Assembly: GCA_018661775.1 (NCBI GenBank)
Contig: JABJHO010000014.1
Location: 42,305 to 106,304, forward strand
Reading direction: 5' to 3'
Length of the DNA stretch: 64,000 nucleotides
Origin: Candidatus Magasanikiibacteriota bacterium
GTDB taxonomy: Bacteria > Patescibacteriota > Patescibacteriia > Magasanikbacterales > UBA922
In this document: one piece after another, positions 12,947 through 20,434 of the stretch
Layout of the letters: the number at the start of each line of letters is the position of its first letter
How positions within the stretch are numbered: the first letter of the stretch is position 1
Position numbers and translations under genes: made by a program
Notes under the pieces: generated by a model
Databases searched by the model: none
The model's input: only the letters and a program-made list of their open reading frames with translations
Told to the model about the DNA's origin: nothing

Positions 12947-15727
12947 ATGATTTCTCTTAAAAAAATGTACGAAACTGTGTTTGGAAGTGCCAACGATGCA
13001 ACCATGAAAAATTTTCAACCATTAGTGAGCACTATTAACGCATTAGAGGTTGAGTACGAGGCGCTGACCGATGAGCAAATTCAAGAAAAAACTACAGTAT
13101 TTAAAAAACAACTAGCGGATGGTAAGAGTCTTAATGAGATATTACCAGAAGCTTTTGCCACGGTAAGAGAGGCAGGTAAGCGCGTTCTTGGAATGCGTCA
13201 TTATGATGTGCAACTTATTGGAGGTATCGCACTCCACAGAGGTATAATTGCAGAAATGAGAACAGGAGAAGGAAAAACGCTTGTGGCAACACTACCGACA
13301 TATTTGAACGCCCTTGAAGGTAAAGGGGTTCATGTGATTACGGTAAATGACTATCTTGCAAAAAGAGACGCGGTTTGGATGGGGCAGATATATGATTTCT
13401 TGGGATTGTCTGTTGGGATAGTACAAGGACAGCGTGTGTCTTTTTTGTATGACACGTCATTTGATGGAAGTGAAGAGGGGGGAGACATTGATGTTGCACG
13501 AGACCAGTTGGGGAGTTTTAAGATTGAAGACCAGTATCTGAGACCGTGTTCTCGAAAAGATGCGTATCGTGCGGATATCACATACGGAACAAACAATGAA
13601 TATGGTTTTGATTATTTGCGAGATAATATGGTGCAAGATGTAGAAGAGATGGTTATGCGTCCTGGGGAAGAAATGCATTACGCGGTGATTGATGAGATTG
13701 ATTCTATTTTAATTGATGAGGCGCGCACACCACTGATTATCTCTGCACCTGCTGAGGCGGCCACAGAGCAGTATTATACGTTTGCAAAAATTGTAAAAAC
13801 ATTAAAAGAGGAAGATCATTATAATGTTGATGAAAAAATGAATAGCGCCACACTTACAGCTGACGGTATTACTGTGTTTGAAAAAACATTGGGAGTGGAA
13901 AATATCTATGCAGAAGGTGGAATGCGTATTGTGCATCATGTTGAGCAAGCGCTTAAGGCCGAGATGTTGTTTAAGCGAGACAAAGAGTATGTGGTAGAAG
14001 AGAATGAAGTGGTAATTATTGATGAGTTTACTGGAAGAAAAATGCCAGGAAGGCGATATTCAGAAGGTTTGCATCAGGCAATAGAAGCAAAGGAAGGTTT
14101 GTCAATTCAACAAGAGAGTAAGACGCTTGCTACGATCACGTTTCAAAATCTTTTTCGTATGTACACCAAGCTTTCGGGTATGACAGGTACGGCAATTACC
14201 GAAGAAGAGGAATTCGGGAGTATTTATCAGTTAGACGTGCTGGTGATCCCTACAAACAAAGAAGACAAGAGAGTAGACAGGACAGATAGGATTTATAAAA
14301 ATGATACCGGCAAAAACAAAGCAATTTTAGAAAAAATAAAAGAATGCAAAGAAAAAGGGCAGCCTATTCTGGTTGGTACTATTTCGGTAGAAAAGAATGA
14401 GGTGCTGAGTCACTATCTTTCTCTTAATAATATTACACATGAGATACTTAATGCCAAGAACCATGAACGAGAAGGGGAGATTGTGGCTAATGCTGGAAAA
14501 ACAAGTGCGGTGACACTTGCCACAAACATGGCGGGCCGTGGTGTGGACATTAAGCTTGGTGGTGCAGATGCTACAAAAGAGGAGGAGCAGCGGGTTATTG
14601 AAGCTGGCGGTCTTTTTGTACTTGGAACAGAGCGGCACGAGTCACGGAGAATAGATAATCAGTTGCGCGGTAGAAGTGCGCGTCAGGGTGACCCCGGTGA
14701 GACGCAATTTTTTGTTTCAACACAAGATGATCTTATGCGTATTTTTGGCGGCGAAAGACTTCAGTCCGTTATGACGCGGTTGAAGGTGCCAGAAGATATG
14801 CCAATTGAGCAAAACATGATTACGAAGATGCTCGAAGGTGCACAAAAAAAAGTAGAGTCCCACCATTATGATACAAGAAAACACTTGTTAGAATATGATG
14901 ATATTCTCAATAAGCAGCGGCATATTATTTACCAAAAGAGGCGAGAAATTCTTGATCTTTCAAAAGAGTCTGAGGTTGATGAGAAAGAAACAGAAGGTGG
15001 TGCTACGTCGCTAAAAGAGGTTGTTATGAATATGATAGAGCAAGAGATTATGTTTGTGGTATCTTTTCATACGAATGTTCGAATGGAAGAAGGAAAGCAG
15101 GATGATGAGTGGAATATTCAGGAAATTTATGAAACAATGCACACGATTTGTACTTTTACAGAAGAAGAAAAGCGAGGGCTTCTTTCTATGGGTAACACCA
15201 AGGAGAGCAAGTTTGATGCAGTGCAAGAGCGGGATCGTATTGTGCAGTTTTTACTTACCAAAGCATCGACTGCATATACTGCTATTGAAGAACATATTGC
15301 TTCTCAGGGTCAGCATATGGATATTGGTGAGGCAGATAAAGTAATGCGTGCGGTAGAAAAACAAATATTATTACGTTCGGTTGATACGCTTTGGGTGGAT
15401 CATTTAGTTGAGATGACATATTTACGAACAGGCATTGGTTTGCGTGGGTATGGCCAGAGAGATCCACTTATTGAGTATAAAAAAGAGTCGTTTGGTATCT
15501 TTAATAGACTGCAAGAAAATATTCAAAAAGAGGTAGTATATTCATTTTTTAAAGTGGGAGTAGGTTTGCAGATTGCTCCGACTATTATGGCTGAAGATAG
15601 TATGATTCTGAAGGGTGCAAAAAAAACCACAGAAAGCGAAGCATTGCAAAATAAAGATGGTGGACCAGGCACAGCAAAAAAGAAAAAAATGAGTAAAAAA
15701 GAACGCAAGAGGAGTAAAAATAAGTAA
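12947..15727 (+). CDS. secA: preprotein translocase ATPase SecA
   Basis: 926 aa. Characteristic N-terminus, Walker A MRTGEGKT and DEAD-like region. C-terminal Lys-rich tail without the zinc-finger. Confidence 0.95.
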   Translation: MISLKKMYETVFGSANDATMKNFQPLVSTINALEVEYEALTDEQIQEKTTVFKKQLADGKSLNEILPEAFATVREAGKRVLGMRHYDVQLIGGIALHRGIIAEMRTGEGKTLVATLPTYLNALEGKGVHVITVNDYLAKRDAVWMGQIYDFLGLSVGIVQGQRVSFLYDTSFDGSEEGGDIDVARDQLGSFKIEDQYLRPCSRKDAYRADITYGTNNEYGFDYLRDNMVQDVEEMVMRPGEEMHYAVIDEIDSILIDEARTPLIISAPAEAATEQYYTFAKIVKTLKEEDHYNVDEKMNSATLTADGITVFEKTLGVENIYAEGGMRIVHHVEQALKAEMLFKRDKEYVVEENEVVIIDEFTGRKMPGRRYSEGLHQAIEAKEGLSIQQESKTLATITFQNLFRMYTKLSGMTGTAITEEEEFGSIYQLDVLVIPTNKEDKRVDRTDRIYKNDTGKNKAILEKIKECKEKGQPILVGTISVEKNEVLSHYLSLNNITHEILNAKNHEREGEIVANAGKTSAVTLATNMAGRGVDIKLGGADATKEEEQRVIEAGGLFVLGTERHESRRIDNQLRGRSARQGDPGETQFFVSTQDDLMRIFGGERLQSVMTRLKVPEDMPIEQNMITKMLEGAQKKVESHHYDTRKHLLEYDDILNKQRHIIYQKRREILDLSKESEVDEKETEGGATSLKEVVMNMIEQEIMFVVSFHTNVRMEEGKQDDEWNIQEIYETMHTICTFTEEEKRGLLSMGNTKESKFDAVQERDRIVQFLLTKASTAYTAIEEHIASQGQHMDIGEADKVMRAVEKQILLRSVDTLWVDHLVEMTYLRTGIGLRGYGQRDPLIEYKKESFGIFNRLQENIQKEVVYSFFKVGVGLQIAPTIMAEDSMILKGAKKTTESEALQNKDGGPGTAKKKKMSKKERKRSKNK

Positions 15728-15753
15728 TTATAACTGCTCTACGCAAAAAAGGG

Positions 15754-15782
15754 TTGACTTTTGCATTCCTGTGTCGTATTAT
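15754..15782 (+). promoter_or_regulatory. sigma70-like promoter upstream of secD
   Basis: TTGACT - 17 bp - TATTAT. Confidence 0.45.
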
Positions 15783-15817
15783 ACTTGCACTAATATATAA
15801 GGTACATTACTCTGTTT

Positions 15818-17854
15818 ATGAACAATCAAGAAGGGACAAAGCGCGTAAGAATGCGTTGGGGAATGGTAAGTATTACTATTTGTTTTTTGGCTATGCTCGG
15901 GTTTATATTCCCGAAGTATACAAATGTTGCTATTAACAATATTAATTCTTTGGCATATCTAGGATTACCAAACATATCGGAAGAGTCTTTTCGGTTGGGT
16001 CTAGATTTGCAAGGCGGTGCACATTTAATATATGAGGCAGACGTACAACACGTGGCAATCGAAGATCGTGCAACTGCAGTAGAAGGTGTGCGAGATGCGG
16101 TTGAGCGCCGAGTAAACGGGACGGGAGTTTCTGAACCAAATGTCCAAACAGCGCGTGTGGGTGAGGCATATAGGCTTATTGTTGATCTTCCAGGTATTGA
16201 AAATGTAAATGAAGCAATAAAACTTATAGGGGAGACACCGGTGCTAGAATTTAAGGAAGAAAATGATGTACCATCAAGGGAGCTTAATGAAGAAGAGAGA
16301 GAGTTAATAACACAAACAAATAGTACAGCAAAATCACGTTCAGAGGAGATAGCAGCCCGAGTGGCAGGTGGTGAGTCTTTTGAAGAGCTTGTTTCTGAGC
16401 TTTCTGAAGACACGATCACAAAAAATAATGGAGGGAGTTTGGGAAATGTTGAGGCAGGTCTGAGTATAACAGGCCCACTTTATGATTGGGCGAAGACTCA
16501 TGTGGATGGGGACATTTCTGAAACACCAATAGAAACAGAGCTGGGATATCACGTTGTAAAGCGCGGGAAAGATGGTGAGTCAAAAGAAAAAGTTTCAGCG
16601 AGCCATATACTAATCTGTTATTTTGGTGCACAGGGTTGTGAAGATGAAACATACACAAAAGAGTCGGCACTAGAAAAAGCACAAGAACTTTTTACTCAAG
16701 CAAATGCTGAAAATTTTGCTGATTTAGCAAAAGAATTTTCTACTGGACCAAGTAAGGGTGCGGGTGGGGACCTTGGTTCTTTTGGGCGCGGTATGATGAT
16801 ACCTGCGTTTGAAGAGGTAGTGTTTTCTGCAGAAGTGGGACAAATTGTAGGGCCAGTTGAAACTGATTTTGGGTATCATGTGATTTATAAGACCGATGTG
16901 GAGGAGGTTGCAACGTATGGCCTTGCTCATATTATGAGTAAAAAGCTAACAGAAAGAGAAGTTCTCCCACCGCAGGATTCATGGAAATCAACAGAGCTTT
17001 CCGGAAAACAACTTGAGCGGGCGGACGTTGCTATTGATCCGCAAACAGGTGCCGTACAAGTTTCTCTTGTTTTTGATAAGGAAGGAAAAAAACTATTTGA
17101 AGATATTACACGAAGAAACCTTAATAAACCTGTTGCAATCTTTTTAGATGGCTCTCCTATTAGTATACCAACAGTTCAGGCCGTCATCGGTGGAGGGGAG
17201 GCGGTGATTACTGGATCATTTACCATTCCAGAAGCAAAACTTTTATCTCAAAGACTTAATACGGGTGCATTACCTGTTCCTATTACTCTTGTATCCCAGC
17301 AGGCTATTGGTGCAAGTTTGGGGGCCGAATCACTGGTAAAGAGTTTGCATGCCGGAATAATTGCTATTATATTGGTAATGCTCTTTATGGTTCTGTATTA
17401 TAGATTACCAGGGGTACTGGCAGTTATTTCTTTAAGCATATATATTGTTGCTGCACTTGCTATTTTTAAATTAATAGGCGTGACATTGACACTAGCTGGA
17501 ATTGCTGGATTTATCCTCTCTATTGGTATGGCGGTTGATGCAAATGTACTGATTTTTGAAAGAATGAAGGAGGAGCTGCGCGAAGGGAAGAGTTTGAAAG
17601 TTGCGGTGGAAGAAGGGTTTGTGCGTGCGTGGACATCTATACGAGATGGAAATATTTCAACACTTATTACCTGTGTATTGTTGGTTGGGTTTGGTGCAAG
17701 TTTTGTTCAGGGGTTTGCTGCAACATTGTCAATTGGTATTTTATTGAGCATGTTTTCGGCGATTACCATTACACGATTGTTTTTGCGTGCAATAGTGCCA
17801 CTATTTTCTCGGTACGGCAATAGACTCTTTTTAGGATTTACTGAAAAAAAATAA
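15818..17854 (+). CDS. secD: protein-export membrane protein SecD with inserted tandem parvulin-type PPIase domains
   Basis: LGLDLQGG P1-domain start. Canonical P1 head (AIFLDG...ISIPTV...ITGSF) and six-TM C-terminus. Residues ~150-345 carry two parvulin signatures (GGSLG...ELGYHVV and SHILI...GGDLGSFGRGMMIPAFEEVVF...FGYHVIYK). Confidence 0.9.
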   Translation: MNNQEGTKRVRMRWGMVSITICFLAMLGFIFPKYTNVAINNINSLAYLGLPNISEESFRLGLDLQGGAHLIYEADVQHVAIEDRATAVEGVRDAVERRVNGTGVSEPNVQTARVGEAYRLIVDLPGIENVNEAIKLIGETPVLEFKEENDVPSRELNEEERELITQTNSTAKSRSEEIAARVAGGESFEELVSELSEDTITKNNGGSLGNVEAGLSITGPLYDWAKTHVDGDISETPIETELGYHVVKRGKDGESKEKVSASHILICYFGAQGCEDETYTKESALEKAQELFTQANAENFADLAKEFSTGPSKGAGGDLGSFGRGMMIPAFEEVVFSAEVGQIVGPVETDFGYHVIYKTDVEEVATYGLAHIMSKKLTEREVLPPQDSWKSTELSGKQLERADVAIDPQTGAVQVSLVFDKEGKKLFEDITRRNLNKPVAIFLDGSPISIPTVQAVIGGGEAVITGSFTIPEAKLLSQRLNTGALPVPITLVSQQAIGASLGAESLVKSLHAGIIAIILVMLFMVLYYRLPGVLAVISLSIYIVAALAIFKLIGVTLTLAGIAGFILSIGMAVDANVLIFERMKEELREGKSLKVAVEEGFVRAWTSIRDGNISTLITCVLLVGFGASFVQGFAATLSIGILLSMFSAITITRLFLRAIVPLFSRYGNRLFLGFTEKK

Positions 17855-17855
17855 T

Positions 17856-18749
17856 ATGATTCCAATAATACAAAAAAAGAACATTTCTTTTACAATTTCC
17901 ACGATTCTCTTTACTTTGAGTCTTATTCTACTTGTTGTTGTAGGTATTAAGCCAGGTATAGATTTTACTGGTGGTACGTTAATACAGTTGCGTTTTGAAG
18001 GAGAGCGCCCAGAACGCGCTGCATTGCAGACTGTGGTGGAGGGTCTTGAGTTAGGCAATGTACTCATACAGCCAGCAGATAACGATTCTCATATCGTGAA
18101 GATGGCATATTTAGAAGAAGAAGATCATCAGCGCCTTTTGTTATCAGTTCGGACAGCATATGAGTCTGAGGAATATAAAGTTGTTGAAGAAAGTGTTGAG
18201 ACTATTGGCCCTTCAATAAGTAGCGATCTTCGTTCAAGATCTATCAAGGCTGGATTTGGTGTGGTTATTGCTATTATTCTTTTTATCGCGTACTCTTTTA
18301 GAAAGGTGTCTAAACCAGTGTCTTCTTGGAAGTTTGGTGTTACGGCGATTATTGCCCTACTTCACGATGTTATTATAACAATGGGTGTTTTTGTACTACT
18401 TGGCCACTTTTTGGGGGTAGAGGTCGGTATTCCGTTTGTTGTGGCAATGCTTACCATTCTTGGGTATTCTGTCAACGATACTATTGTTGTATTTGATAGG
18501 ATTAGGGAAAAAATTATGAGAAAAGAATATAAGAATTTTGCAGAGACGGTTAATGTTGGAGTGAATGAAACTATTCCTCGTTCAATAAATACATCAGTAA
18601 CCACTTTGTTAGTGCTTCTTGGTCTATGTATTTTTGGTGGAGAAAGTGTACGATTCTTCTCACTTTCTTTGGTGATAGGTATTATACTAGGAACATATTC
18701 GTCACTGTTTTTGGCGAGCCCACTGTTAGTTTGGTGGGAGAAAAAATAG
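17856..18749 (+). CDS. secF: protein-export membrane protein SecF
   Basis: GIDFTGGT motif, 6 TM, 297 aa. Immediately follows secD. Confidence 0.9.
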   Translation: MIPIIQKKNISFTISTILFTLSLILLVVVGIKPGIDFTGGTLIQLRFEGERPERAALQTVVEGLELGNVLIQPADNDSHIVKMAYLEEEDHQRLLLSVRTAYESEEYKVVEESVETIGPSISSDLRSRSIKAGFGVVIAIILFIAYSFRKVSKPVSSWKFGVTAIIALLHDVIITMGVFVLLGHFLGVEVGIPFVVAMLTILGYSVNDTIVVFDRIREKIMRKEYKNFAETVNVGVNETIPRSINTSVTTLLVLLGLCIFGGESVRFFSLSLVIGIILGTYSSLFLASPLLVWWEKK

Positions 18750-18852: not shown

Positions 18853-19014
18853 ATGACAGACAATTTTATTCGTCATCTTATAGCATTTCTTGTGGTGCTT
18901 ATTTGTCTTATTATTTTTAGTGTTGGATATATGTCCGGAATACGAGGTTGGTGGTTTTCTGGCTTTACTCTTTTGTTTGTGTACATAATTATCTACAAAC
19001 TTGTTGATGTGTAA
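18853..19014 (+). CDS. possible small two-TM membrane protein (53 aa)
   Basis: ATG ORF MTDNFIRHLIAFLVVLICLIIFSVGYMSGIRGWWFSGFTLLFVYIIIYKLVDV in the secF-downstream gap. Below tool cutoff. Confidence 0.25.
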   Translation: MTDNFIRHLIAFLVVLICLIIFSVGYMSGIRGWWFSGFTLLFVYIIIYKLVDV

Positions 19015-19015
19015 T

Positions 19016-20434
19016 ATGGAAGTAGTCCCTTTATTAAACATATCATCTATTCTAGGAGCCATAGGCAGTAATCCTATGGAAGTTTTTGTGTCAATATTTA
19101 TTTTTTTTGGATACGCCATACTATTTTATACTTTGTGCAAGGCAGTGCTTGAACTATATGTAGATTATAGGCAAAAAAAAAATACACAATCTTGGAATTT
19201 TGTTGTTTTGGCAATAGATATTCCTCCAATGAATATTCAAACCCCAAAAGCGGTTGAACAATTGTTTGCGCATTTGGCGGGTATTTTTAGTAAGCCAAAT
19301 ATTGCTGCAAAATTCCGTGGTGGCCATGTACAGAGGTCTTTTAGTTTTGAAATAGTGAGTATTGACGGATATATACAATTTCTTGTGCATACAGAAGAAG
19401 AGTACAGGGAACTTGTTGAGGCTGCGCTCTATGCGCAATACCCTAACGCTGAAATTACACAAGTAGAAGATTATGTGCAGAAGATTCCAGATAGGTATCC
19501 TCATGAAGAATATGATATTTGGGCTACAGATATTGGATTGGCCGAACACAGTGCATATCCAATTCGGATGTATTCTGATTTTGAACACAAAAACTCGGAA
19601 GAAGAGGTGTTAAAAGATCCAATGAGTGCTTTGCTCGAGAGCTTTTCTCGCATAGGGTCTGGTGAACAGATCTGGTTGCAAATAATAGTAGAGCCAATAT
19701 CGAGTAAGTGGAAAGAAGATGTTATCGAAAAAATCAATGAAGTGTTGGGTAATGTTTCGGTTTCCGGGGCTGGGCCAGGTTCACGTTTTTTTTCCTCTAT
19801 TTCAACAATAATAGGGCAGTTGTTTTTTCATATTTTTGGAGGAGAAGAGACTGCCACTTCGGCTGATACCAGGTCAGAGATATCTTCAGGTTTGTCTCCA
19901 GGCGTCTCTAATGCTGTTCAAGGCATGGAAGAAAAAATGACAAAGGTTGGTTTAAAAACTAACATGCGTGCGGTGTATATAGGAAGAAAGGATAACTTTT
20001 CACCTCAGCGTGGTATCAATGCACTTTTAGGGTCTTTGAATCAGTTTAGTATACCCACAGCCAATGCTATTGTTCCTACGTATGGTGTTTCAACATCATA
20101 TTTTAAGGCAGAAAAGCGTAGTAACCAGAAAAAGAATGTATTAATGGAGCATTATAAAAAAAGAAAAATCAGTATTAAAAAAGGACCCAAACCATATATT
20201 TTAAATGTTGAGGAGCTTGCAAGTATTTGGCATTTCCCACTTTCACATGTAAAAACACCGCTATTACAGGTTGTGGCCTCAAAACCTTCTGAACCACCAG
20301 TTGGTTTGCCAATAGAAATGAGCAGTGGTATGGGTGGTTCTTCACAGGGAGTCGATCTTTCTGGTGTTTTTCTCCCTAAGGAGGGTGAACCAGATGCATA
20401 TAGTGGGCCACCGCCAAACCTACCTTTTGGGTAG
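19016..20434 (+). CDS. hypothetical protein, N-terminal TM helix, C-terminal Gly/Pro-rich tail
   Basis: 472 aa ORF with good coding periodicity. No recognisable motif. Start taken at ATG 19016 (MEVVPLL). Confidence 0.5.
   Translation: MEVVPLLNISSILGAIGSNPMEVFVSIFIFFGYAILFYTLCKAVLELYVDYRQKKNTQSWNFVVLAIDIPPMNIQTPKAVEQLFAHLAGIFSKPNIAAKFRGGHVQRSFSFEIVSIDGYIQFLVHTEEEYRELVEAALYAQYPNAEITQVEDYVQKIPDRYPHEEYDIWATDIGLAEHSAYPIRMYSDFEHKNSEEEVLKDPMSALLESFSRIGSGEQIWLQIIVEPISSKWKEDVIEKINEVLGNVSVSGAGPGSRFFSSISTIIGQLFFHIFGGEETATSADTRSEISSGLSPGVSNAVQGMEEKMTKVGLKTNMRAVYIGRKDNFSPQRGINALLGSLNQFSIPTANAIVPTYGVSTSYFKAEKRSNQKKNVLMEHYKKRKISIKKGPKPYILNVEELASIWHFPLSHVKTPLLQVVASKPSEPPVGLPIEMSSGMGGSSQGVDLSGVFLPKEGEPDAYSGPPPNLPFG

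Follow-up and report, generated by a model that had tools for sequence, protein, structure and literature searches.

We report a SecD protein that carries two parvulin-type peptidyl-prolyl isomerase (PPIase) domains within its P1 domain. The protein is encoded on a 64,000-nucleotide stretch of DNA from a Candidatus Magasanikiibacteriota bacterium (contig JABJHO010000014.1), the whole of which is referred to here as the window, and its gene, secD, is a single uninterrupted frame for 678 amino acids in the list of open reading frames (ORFs; 15818-17854). All features located by coordinates below lie on the + strand. The fusion is real, occurs widely in Patescibacteria and has apparently not been described before; it couples the export of proteins physically to parvulin-type folding domains. 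We think it fairly likely that the insert is a translocon-tethered chaperone or PPIase, and as such a covalent counterpart of the association of PpiD, SurA and PrsA-like proteins with SecDF.

Two parvulin domains lie between the base and the head of the SecD P1 domain

The original prediction, made from the letters of the DNA, was that a partial and a complete parvulin domain sit as a pair between the P1 base and head of an otherwise canonical SecD. The order of Pfam domains, the NCBIfam model for SecD and an alignment to a solved SecDF structure all agree with this. Along the whole protein Pfam finds SecD_1st (residues 90-149), two Rotamase/Rotamase_3 stretches, SecDF_P1_head (residues 390-487) and SecD_SecF_C (residues 490-655), in that order. 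The NCBIfam model TIGR01129 (secD) also recognises the protein (376.4 bits; cut-off 244.4), with its match divided into two stretches by the insert. When the protein was aligned by phmmer to Thermus thermophilus (Tt) SecDF (3AQP), residues 55-146 corresponded to Tt residues 30-116 and residues 375-658 to Tt residues 142-424, with the gap falling at 146/375 of the query and 116/142 of the Tt protein. The insert is accordingly 228 residues long (residues 147-374; 16256-16939) and takes the place of approximately 25 residues of Tt SecDF (117-141). It follows the base strand VLEFKE and precedes the start of the P1 head.

Outside the insert the plan of a SecD is complete, comprising a first transmembrane helix (TM1), a P1 domain with base and head, and five further TM helices with an aspartate in TM4, as seen from Pfam and from the helices of the AlphaFold2 model. 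TM1 (residues ~14-35; 15857-15922) corresponds to the hydrophobic stretch MVSITICFLAMLGFIF and is modelled as a helix over residues 2-30. The N-terminal element of the P1 base (residues 55-146; 15980-16255) is the part aligned to Tt residues 30-116 and has VLEFKE as its last strand, and the P1 head, the preprotein-capturing part (residues 390-487; 16985-17278), matches SecDF_P1_head with 94 bits. TM2 to TM6 (17285-17797) fall within SecD_SecF_C and contain the proton-path aspartate D574 in TM4, which aligns with D340 of T. thermophilus and is invariant among the aligned homologues. Judged by its sequence, the window protein is a canonical proton-driven SecD apart from the insert. The position of TM1, taken with the topology of solved SecDF structures, places the P1 domain, and hence the parvulins, on the extracytoplasmic side of the membrane.

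Each inserted segment was recognised when scored on its own, at bit scores that clearly exceed the gathering thresholds (about 22 bits) and are far beyond chance. The first (residues 145-255) matched Rotamase with 53.2 bits (E 6e-14, cut-off 21.7) and the second (residues 256-371) matched Rotamase_3 with 90.2 bits (E 2e-25, cut-off 22.5). The partial and complete character of the two domains is also borne out, since the first, D1 (residues ~158-252; 16289-16573), covers positions 12-95 of the 97-position Rotamase profile and the second, D2 (residues 253-365; 16574-16912), covers positions 1-96. The match from position 12 onwards indicates that D1 is N-terminally partial, without strand β1 and the first histidine. 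By hidden Markov model (HMM), both segments are members of the parvulin family, and D2 is so by its predicted fold as well.

Structure prediction for the insert alone gave the expected parvulin folds, with a predicted local distance difference test score (pLDDT) of 93 and a predicted TM-score (pTM) of 0.69. The top Foldseek match of this model was SurA, with both of its parvulins covered (E 2e-11, ~245 columns). In the AlphaFold2 models long β-ribbons connect D1 with D2 and D2 with the head. Beyond D2, the β1-like strand YGLAHIMSKK (residues 367-376; 16916-16945) is modelled as a hairpin with β4 of D2 and runs into the head, and a conserved motif, ILPPQD.W, follows just past the insert.

The sequence motifs on which the original prediction drew are all present, namely HILI (residues 263-266; 16604-16615), GGDLGSFGRGMMIPAFEEVVF (residues 316-336) and FGYHVIYK (residues 351-358; 16868-16891). 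The range that it gave for the feature, 16265-16855, corresponds to residues 150-346. It stops short of the end of D2 (approximately 16912) and leaves FGYHVIYK outside.

The fusion is conserved and takes several forms in Patescibacteria

The identical 678-residue protein is encoded by 16 contigs, which come from at least four independent assemblies, among them the NCBI metagenome-assembled genomes GCA_018658985.1 and GCA_018701615.1 and two ENA assemblies, and in every case it has a secA-secD-secF neighbourhood. All 120 of the 120 best homologues, at 57-96% identity, are about 680 residues long and have the identical set of Pfam domains; those that bear a name are listed as SecD from Candidatus Magasanikbacteria or Patescibacteria, and the contigs of some homologues are as long as 621 kb. 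GC content and GC skew run smoothly across secD, with no break in composition. An assembly chimera, one of two findings that had been named as able to overturn the prediction, is rejected by the 16 contigs, by the hundreds of homologues that share the architecture and by the smooth composition. The other, subthreshold HMM scores for both parvulin segments, is contradicted by the scores given above.

The wider distribution was surveyed by an exhaustive HMMER search with SecD residues 55-492 against 1.84 billion cluster representatives, which returned 358 clusters at E ≤ 1e-30. Among the best 150 of these (50%-identity representatives), 91 combine a parvulin with SecD parts, 41 are SecDs lacking an insert, 17 are free multi-parvulin proteins and one shows a match to the P1 head followed by a parvulin (head-D2). 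A scan of GTDB species genomes with a profile of the insert, followed by mapping of the segments, found the architecture of the window SecD at 40 loci, in Magasanikbacteria, in records titled 'Patescibacteria group' and in some evidently mistitled records. Thirteen loci that carry a Magasanikbacteria-type SecD with the insert (L006, L011, L016, L021-L024, L026, L030, L032, L033, L042 and L047) are titled 'uncultured Gammaproteobacteria bacterium isolate binchicken_*/SRP*', and these titles are likely to be taxonomic mislabels.

Four forms of the fusion can be distinguished, with inserts of approximately 100 to 350 residues. SecDs of ~560-590 residues with a single parvulin occur in Candidatus Veblenbacteria, Kerfeldbacteria, 'Nomurabacteria' and Patescibacteria. 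The two-parvulin form of ~680 residues, to which the window protein belongs, is that of Magasanikbacteria. Peregrinibacteria have SecDs of ~780-830 residues with an insert of ~350 residues and one detectable parvulin; in the GTDB scan, Pfam placed the parvulin of Peregrinibacteria/Peribacteria SecDs of 808-831 residues at residues ~350-465, between SecD_1st and the head. Finally, single-chain SecDFs of ~1010-1100 residues with a parvulin insert are found in Peregrinibacteria/Gracilibacteria. In a MAFFT alignment the point of insertion is identical across all variants, and SecDs of Patescibacteria without the insert have 10-30 residues at this site. The survey of orthologues thus reveals parvulin insertion at the same site to be widespread in Patescibacteria and absent from the Azambacteria-type SecD, a cluster of insert-less proteins of 471-476 residues from Candidatus Azambacteria/Patescibacteria. 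Matches from outside this group of phyla (Planctomycetota, Ignavibacteriota, Myxococcota and others) are free parvulin proteins without SecD segments.

Parvulin-bearing proteins of this kind are present by the thousands in public databases, complete with precomputed Pfam matches, under the names 'SecD', 'SecF' or 'SecD/SecF fusion'. This naming hides the parvulin feature in the annotation, and no description of a SecD-parvulin fusion was found in the open-access papers and bioRxiv preprints that we searched.

The sequences also bear on how the insert arose. The single-parvulin unit aligns to D1 with the SASHILI strand that follows it (window protein residues 140-278), and also to D2 with the next strand (residues 286-400), which suggests that the tandem form arose through internal duplication. 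In the single-parvulin SecDs (P0132, P0144, P0424, P0472) the domain opens at helix α1, has no β1, and is followed after β4 by a strand with the motif SHIL; from its sequence it resembles a parvulin that has been circularly permuted, with the β1-α1 loop as the place through which it was inserted. The strand at residues 367-376 of the window protein is homologous to this conserved SHIL strand. In the window insert a β1-like strand stands behind each parvulin core (residues 256-266, 16583-16615; residues 367-376, 16916-16945).

A group of free proteins of 363-415 residues (P0159, P0180, P0181, P0186, P0207, P0230, P0236, P0245, P0250, P0252; also the locus L038:3920-5047, from Planctomycetota) has three tandem Pin1-like domains behind a signal-peptide-like hydrophobic N-terminus, with a possible lipobox cysteine in several of them. 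The loop HILxxYxGAxxAxxxVTRTKEEA is common to these triple-parvulin proteins and to D2 of SecD, and on sequence grounds they may be the donor family of the SecD insert.

D2 is a complete Pin1-like domain with an altered catalytic position

The AlphaFold2 model of D2 consists of β1 (residues 256-266), three helices, β2, α4, β3 and β4. Foldseek aligned it to the PPIase domain of Pin1 with TM-scores of 0.78-0.80 over 112 of 113 columns at 37% identity, and across the Pin1, PrsA and SurA-P2 domains the TM-scores were 0.78-0.84, near full length and with the elements in normal order. We also considered whether D2 could be a circularly permuted parvulin that draws its β1 from the strand at residues 367-376. 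This found no support, as the histidine of that strand is unconserved (8 His, 24 Arg) and the model aligns to Pin1 end to end in the normal order.

Conservation was counted in a family alignment of 39 Magasanikbacteria-type sequences. H263, S308 and H354 of D2 are invariant, and T349 together with L319, M327 and F331 of the hydrophobic pocket are at least 90% conserved. That the groove of D2 is conserved family-wide speaks for a part in the binding of clients or in catalysis. The position of the catalytic cysteine of Pin1 (Cys113) and Par10, which is aspartate in PrsA and SurA, is taken in the window protein by G310 (16745-16747), as judged from an alignment to E. coli PpiC (1jns) in which the Par10 cysteine faces this residue. 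The same column holds aspartate in 32 sequences, glutamate in six and glycine in one, and is therefore acidic in 38 of the 39; the closest relative, P0001 (96% identical), has glycine there too.

The β1-α1 loop of D2 is 14 residues long and ends in YTKESA, compared with TRTKEEA in Pin1, and it lacks the basic phosphate-binding residues of the latter. It contains a Cys-x6-Cys pair (C267 and C274; 16616-16639), both members of which are invariant (39/39). Neither the Peregrinibacteria-type nor the single-parvulin variants have this pair. The two extracytoplasmic cysteines may form a disulfide, or else belong to a redox or metal site.

D1 is the least conserved segment of the protein, with a mean pairwise identity of 47% versus 60% in D2. 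The window protein differs from P0001 at 28 positions, 15 of which lie in D1 and one in D2. In D1 the serine and aspartate of the motif SEDxxSKNNGG are retained.

The insert probably acts on chains that emerge from the translocon

The P1 head of SecDF binds the emerging preprotein and swings between membrane-facing and upright positions by means of the proton gradient (PMC5974789), and several free parvulin proteins have been shown or proposed to associate with SecDF or the translocon. SurA binds the holo-translocon, and AlphaFold consistently puts both of its parvulin domains on the SecDF P1 head (PMC9987972). PpiD-YfgM is reported to be associated with SecYEG (PMC9643414). In Mycoplasma, PrsA-like lipoproteins build a dome complex over SecDF/SecYEG, in which density assigned to the substrate is in contact with the active PPIase domain (bioRxiv 10.1101/2025.04.25.650208; 10.1101/2024.09.05.611430).

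For the SecD of the window we infer substrate hand-over, chaperone or isomerase activity and coupling to movement of the head. The P1 head would catch a polypeptide as it emerges from SecYEG and then swing, and the parvulin pair, standing beside the head, would take the unfolded chain directly. The degenerate D1 would serve as a binding or spacer domain, comparable to the inactive first parvulin of SurA, and the Pin1-like D2 would be a holdase and, in most members of the family, a prolyl isomerase as well. A parvulin module in cis would then perform the task that PpiD, SurA and PrsA-like proteins perform when docked on the translocon. No second parvulin gene was found within the 64-kb window. 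Since the acidic residue has been lost at G310, the role in the window lineage would be that of a holdase or a weak isomerase, and from the sequence the module is there probably in the main a chaperone or binding domain, or else a weak isomerase.

A number of observations weigh against this proposal. D1 opens with helix α1 and has neither an N-terminal β1 nor the first histidine, and its second histidine (H245) is histidine in 11 of the 39 sequences and asparagine in 23. The catalytic set of D2 is incomplete in the window protein, with H263, T349 and H354 kept and glycine at the Cys/Asp position, and the residues beside G310 (T309 and P311) are non-acidic; given Gly310, the prolyl isomerase activity of this D2 may be low. 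The N/C chaperone domain, which is the main chaperone part of SurA and PrsA, is absent from the insert. In the full-length AlphaFold2 model pLDDT is ~90 across the parvulins but pTM is just 0.39. Finally, a set of Peregrinibacteria-type single-chain SecDFs of 1011-1013 residues (P0320, P0329, P0341, P0348, P0349, P0351, P0355) is without a precomputed Rotamase match. They share 52-54% identity with P0175, which does bear a parvulin, and are near-equal to it in length, which suggests that the inserted domain can degenerate while the insert stays. The prediction of a covalently coupled PpiD/SurA/PrsA-like foldase is supported, with reservations. The fusion, and with it a covalent parvulin module, is confirmed; a lipobox and a separate anchor are missing along with the N/C chaperone domain, and the foldase activity is putative, with glycine at the catalytic Cys/Asp position of D2.

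Some of these observations would also suit a structural or adaptor function, for which the parvulin folds would have been co-opted as a spacer or as a surface for docking, with no action on translocating chains. The insert could then make the P1 arm long enough to cross the cell-wall zone, or it could bind an envelope component or partner protein. The degeneracy of D1, the missing catalytic acid of D2 in the window lineage, the relatives that keep the length of the insert without a detectable Rotamase signature, the highly variable insert size and the invariant cysteine pair of unassigned role in the D2 loop are all in keeping with such a function. A mere spacer, however, would not need the invariant or near-invariant active-site and pocket residues that D2 has across the family, the insertion adjoins the known preprotein-binding head, and free parvulin chaperones are known to dock at that same head. 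We regard a purely structural role as possible but unlikely.

The insert could alternatively regulate the SecDF motor in cis, by binding or isomerising a segment of SecD or SecF, such as the proline-rich hinge LPPQD, and so gating the swing of the head rather than folding clients. It does occupy one of the two connections between base and head, the conserved ILPPQD.W motif lies right behind it, and the β-ribbons of the AlphaFold2 model join D1 to D2 and D2 to the head. Direct support for regulation is nevertheless wanting, related SecDs work with 10-30 residues at the site, proline-containing linkers are commonplace, and conservation of the whole substrate groove would be left unexplained, so that we judge this explanation decidedly improbable. 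That the fusion is an artefact, produced either by chimeric assembly or by a frameshift that joins separate genes for a parvulin and a SecD, was considered solely for the metagenomic source of the DNA, and with no supporting point, an unbroken ORF, SecD sequence on both sides of an insert internal to P1, the identical protein in NCBI and ENA assemblies, identical junctions in hundreds of diverged homologues and an even base composition along the gene, its probability is negligible.

If the insert is indeed a tethered chaperone or PPIase, a more far-reaching and rather doubtful extension is that the swing of the P1 head, driven by the proton-motive force, could cyclically load and unload the chaperone groove. 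The protein would then be an energy-coupled extracytoplasmic foldase or holdase working without ATP, and the fusion a 'Rosetta stone', marking the contact between parvulins (SurA, PpiD, PrsA-like) and the P1 head as a general and ancient interface of the Sec system.

How proteins emerging from SecYEG are handed over to folding factors on the outer, ATP-free side is an active question. A conserved and widespread covalent fusion gives independent evolutionary support to the link between parvulins and the SecDF/translocon, and it locates the interface beside the P1 head. It also offers a simple single-polypeptide system for structural and biochemical work on the coupling of translocation to folding. 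The fusion also illustrates how Patescibacteria, with their reduced genomes, may economise by making a chaperone part of the export apparatus.

Genomic context of secD

The gene stands between those for its functional partners, in an order, secA-secD-secF, that is repeated on independent contigs. Upstream lies secA (12947-15727), encoding 926 residues with the Pfam domains SecA_DEAD, SecA_PP_bind, P-loop_SecA and SecA_SW. Downstream, secF (17856-18749) starts one nucleotide past the secD stop codon and encodes the partner subunit of 297 residues, which matches SecD_SecF_C with 190 bits as well as Sec_GG. SecF aligns to Tt SecDF residues 457-725 and keeps the conserved arginine equivalent to Tt R671. 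In the spacer between secA and secD (15728-15817) a σ70-like pair, TTGACT...TATTAT, was spotted by eye, and secD-secF may therefore have a promoter of their own.

Beyond secF, an ORF for 477 residues with a TTG start (19001-20434) had no Pfam match in the scan of the window. Its counterpart on the identical public contigs is 472 residues long, belongs to PF26449 (DUF8128) and is preceded by a 53-residue ORF; the gene is a conserved neighbour. GC skew is positive in all 4-kb bins across the window (1-64000), at 0.06-0.28, with its maximum at 12-24 kb, a region of + strand genes. Such a pattern fits a strong strand bias, of coding or of replication, in the Magasanikbacteria genome.

Comparison with known SecD proteins and parvulin chaperones

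The window protein shares TM1, the P1 base, the head, TM2-6, the proton-path aspartate and an adjacent SecF with canonical SecD/SecDF proteins (Tt 3AQP/5YHF; E. coli SecD). It differs from them in having a 228-residue tandem parvulin in place of approximately 25 residues between LEFKE and the head, and no foldase domain was found in the solved SecD/SecDF structures.

D2 resembles the Pin1-type PPIase domain in aligning with it from end to end and in its long β1-α1 loop ending in (Y/R)TKE(E/S)A. The catalytic cysteine of Pin1, in contrast, is Asp or Glu in the SecD family and Gly in the window protein, and the loop of SecD D2 has Cys-x6-Cys in place of the basic phosphate-binding residues.

Membership of the window protein in the PrsA or SurA family was rejected, since neither set of models comes near its cut-off and the insert has no counterpart of their chaperone domains; membership in the PpiD family appears unlikely, as the module sits inside SecD. 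The SurA model NF008038 reaches 51.8 bits against a cut-off of 394, over the tandem parvulin part only, and the PrsA models NF002827 and NF002846 reach 87 bits against cut-offs of 343 and 361, again over the parvulin part only. No PpiD family model is among the 25 NCBIfam matches listed (the best 25 of 43), and no search for yfgM was made.

The parvulin domain of PpiD is catalytically inactive, and in this it resembles D1 and possibly D2 of the window lineage. PpiD has its own N-terminal anchor, large chaperone domains and YfgM as a partner, and unlike the parvulins described here it is not part of SecD. What the E. coli protein has in common with the window SecD is that it is reported to be a membrane-tethered parvulin chaperone at the translocon exit (PMC9643414).

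SurA of E. coli (PDB 1M5Y) is likewise a tandem of parvulins, with the first inactive and the second of active type. It is the top structural match to the insert, and its parvulins have been modelled on the SecDF P1 head (PMC9987972). SurA differs in being free and soluble and in having a chaperone core made from its N- and C-terminal parts, which the window SecD lacks. Its clients are outer-membrane proteins. Patescibacteria are not known to have an outer membrane.

PrsA and the Mycoplasma 'dome' proteins Mdp and Mpn444 are, like the insert, extracytoplasmic parvulins at the membrane surface beside the Sec exit. D2 is close in sequence and fold to the parvulin domains of PrsA, and the PrsA-like Mdp and Mpn444 are physically associated with SecD. 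The window protein has no lipobox because its N-terminus is TM1 of SecD. PrsA and Mdp, on the other hand, are lipoproteins in their own right that carry a SurA/trigger-factor-like chaperone domain and associate non-covalently, whereas the parvulins of the window protein are joined to SecD by peptide bonds within the chain.

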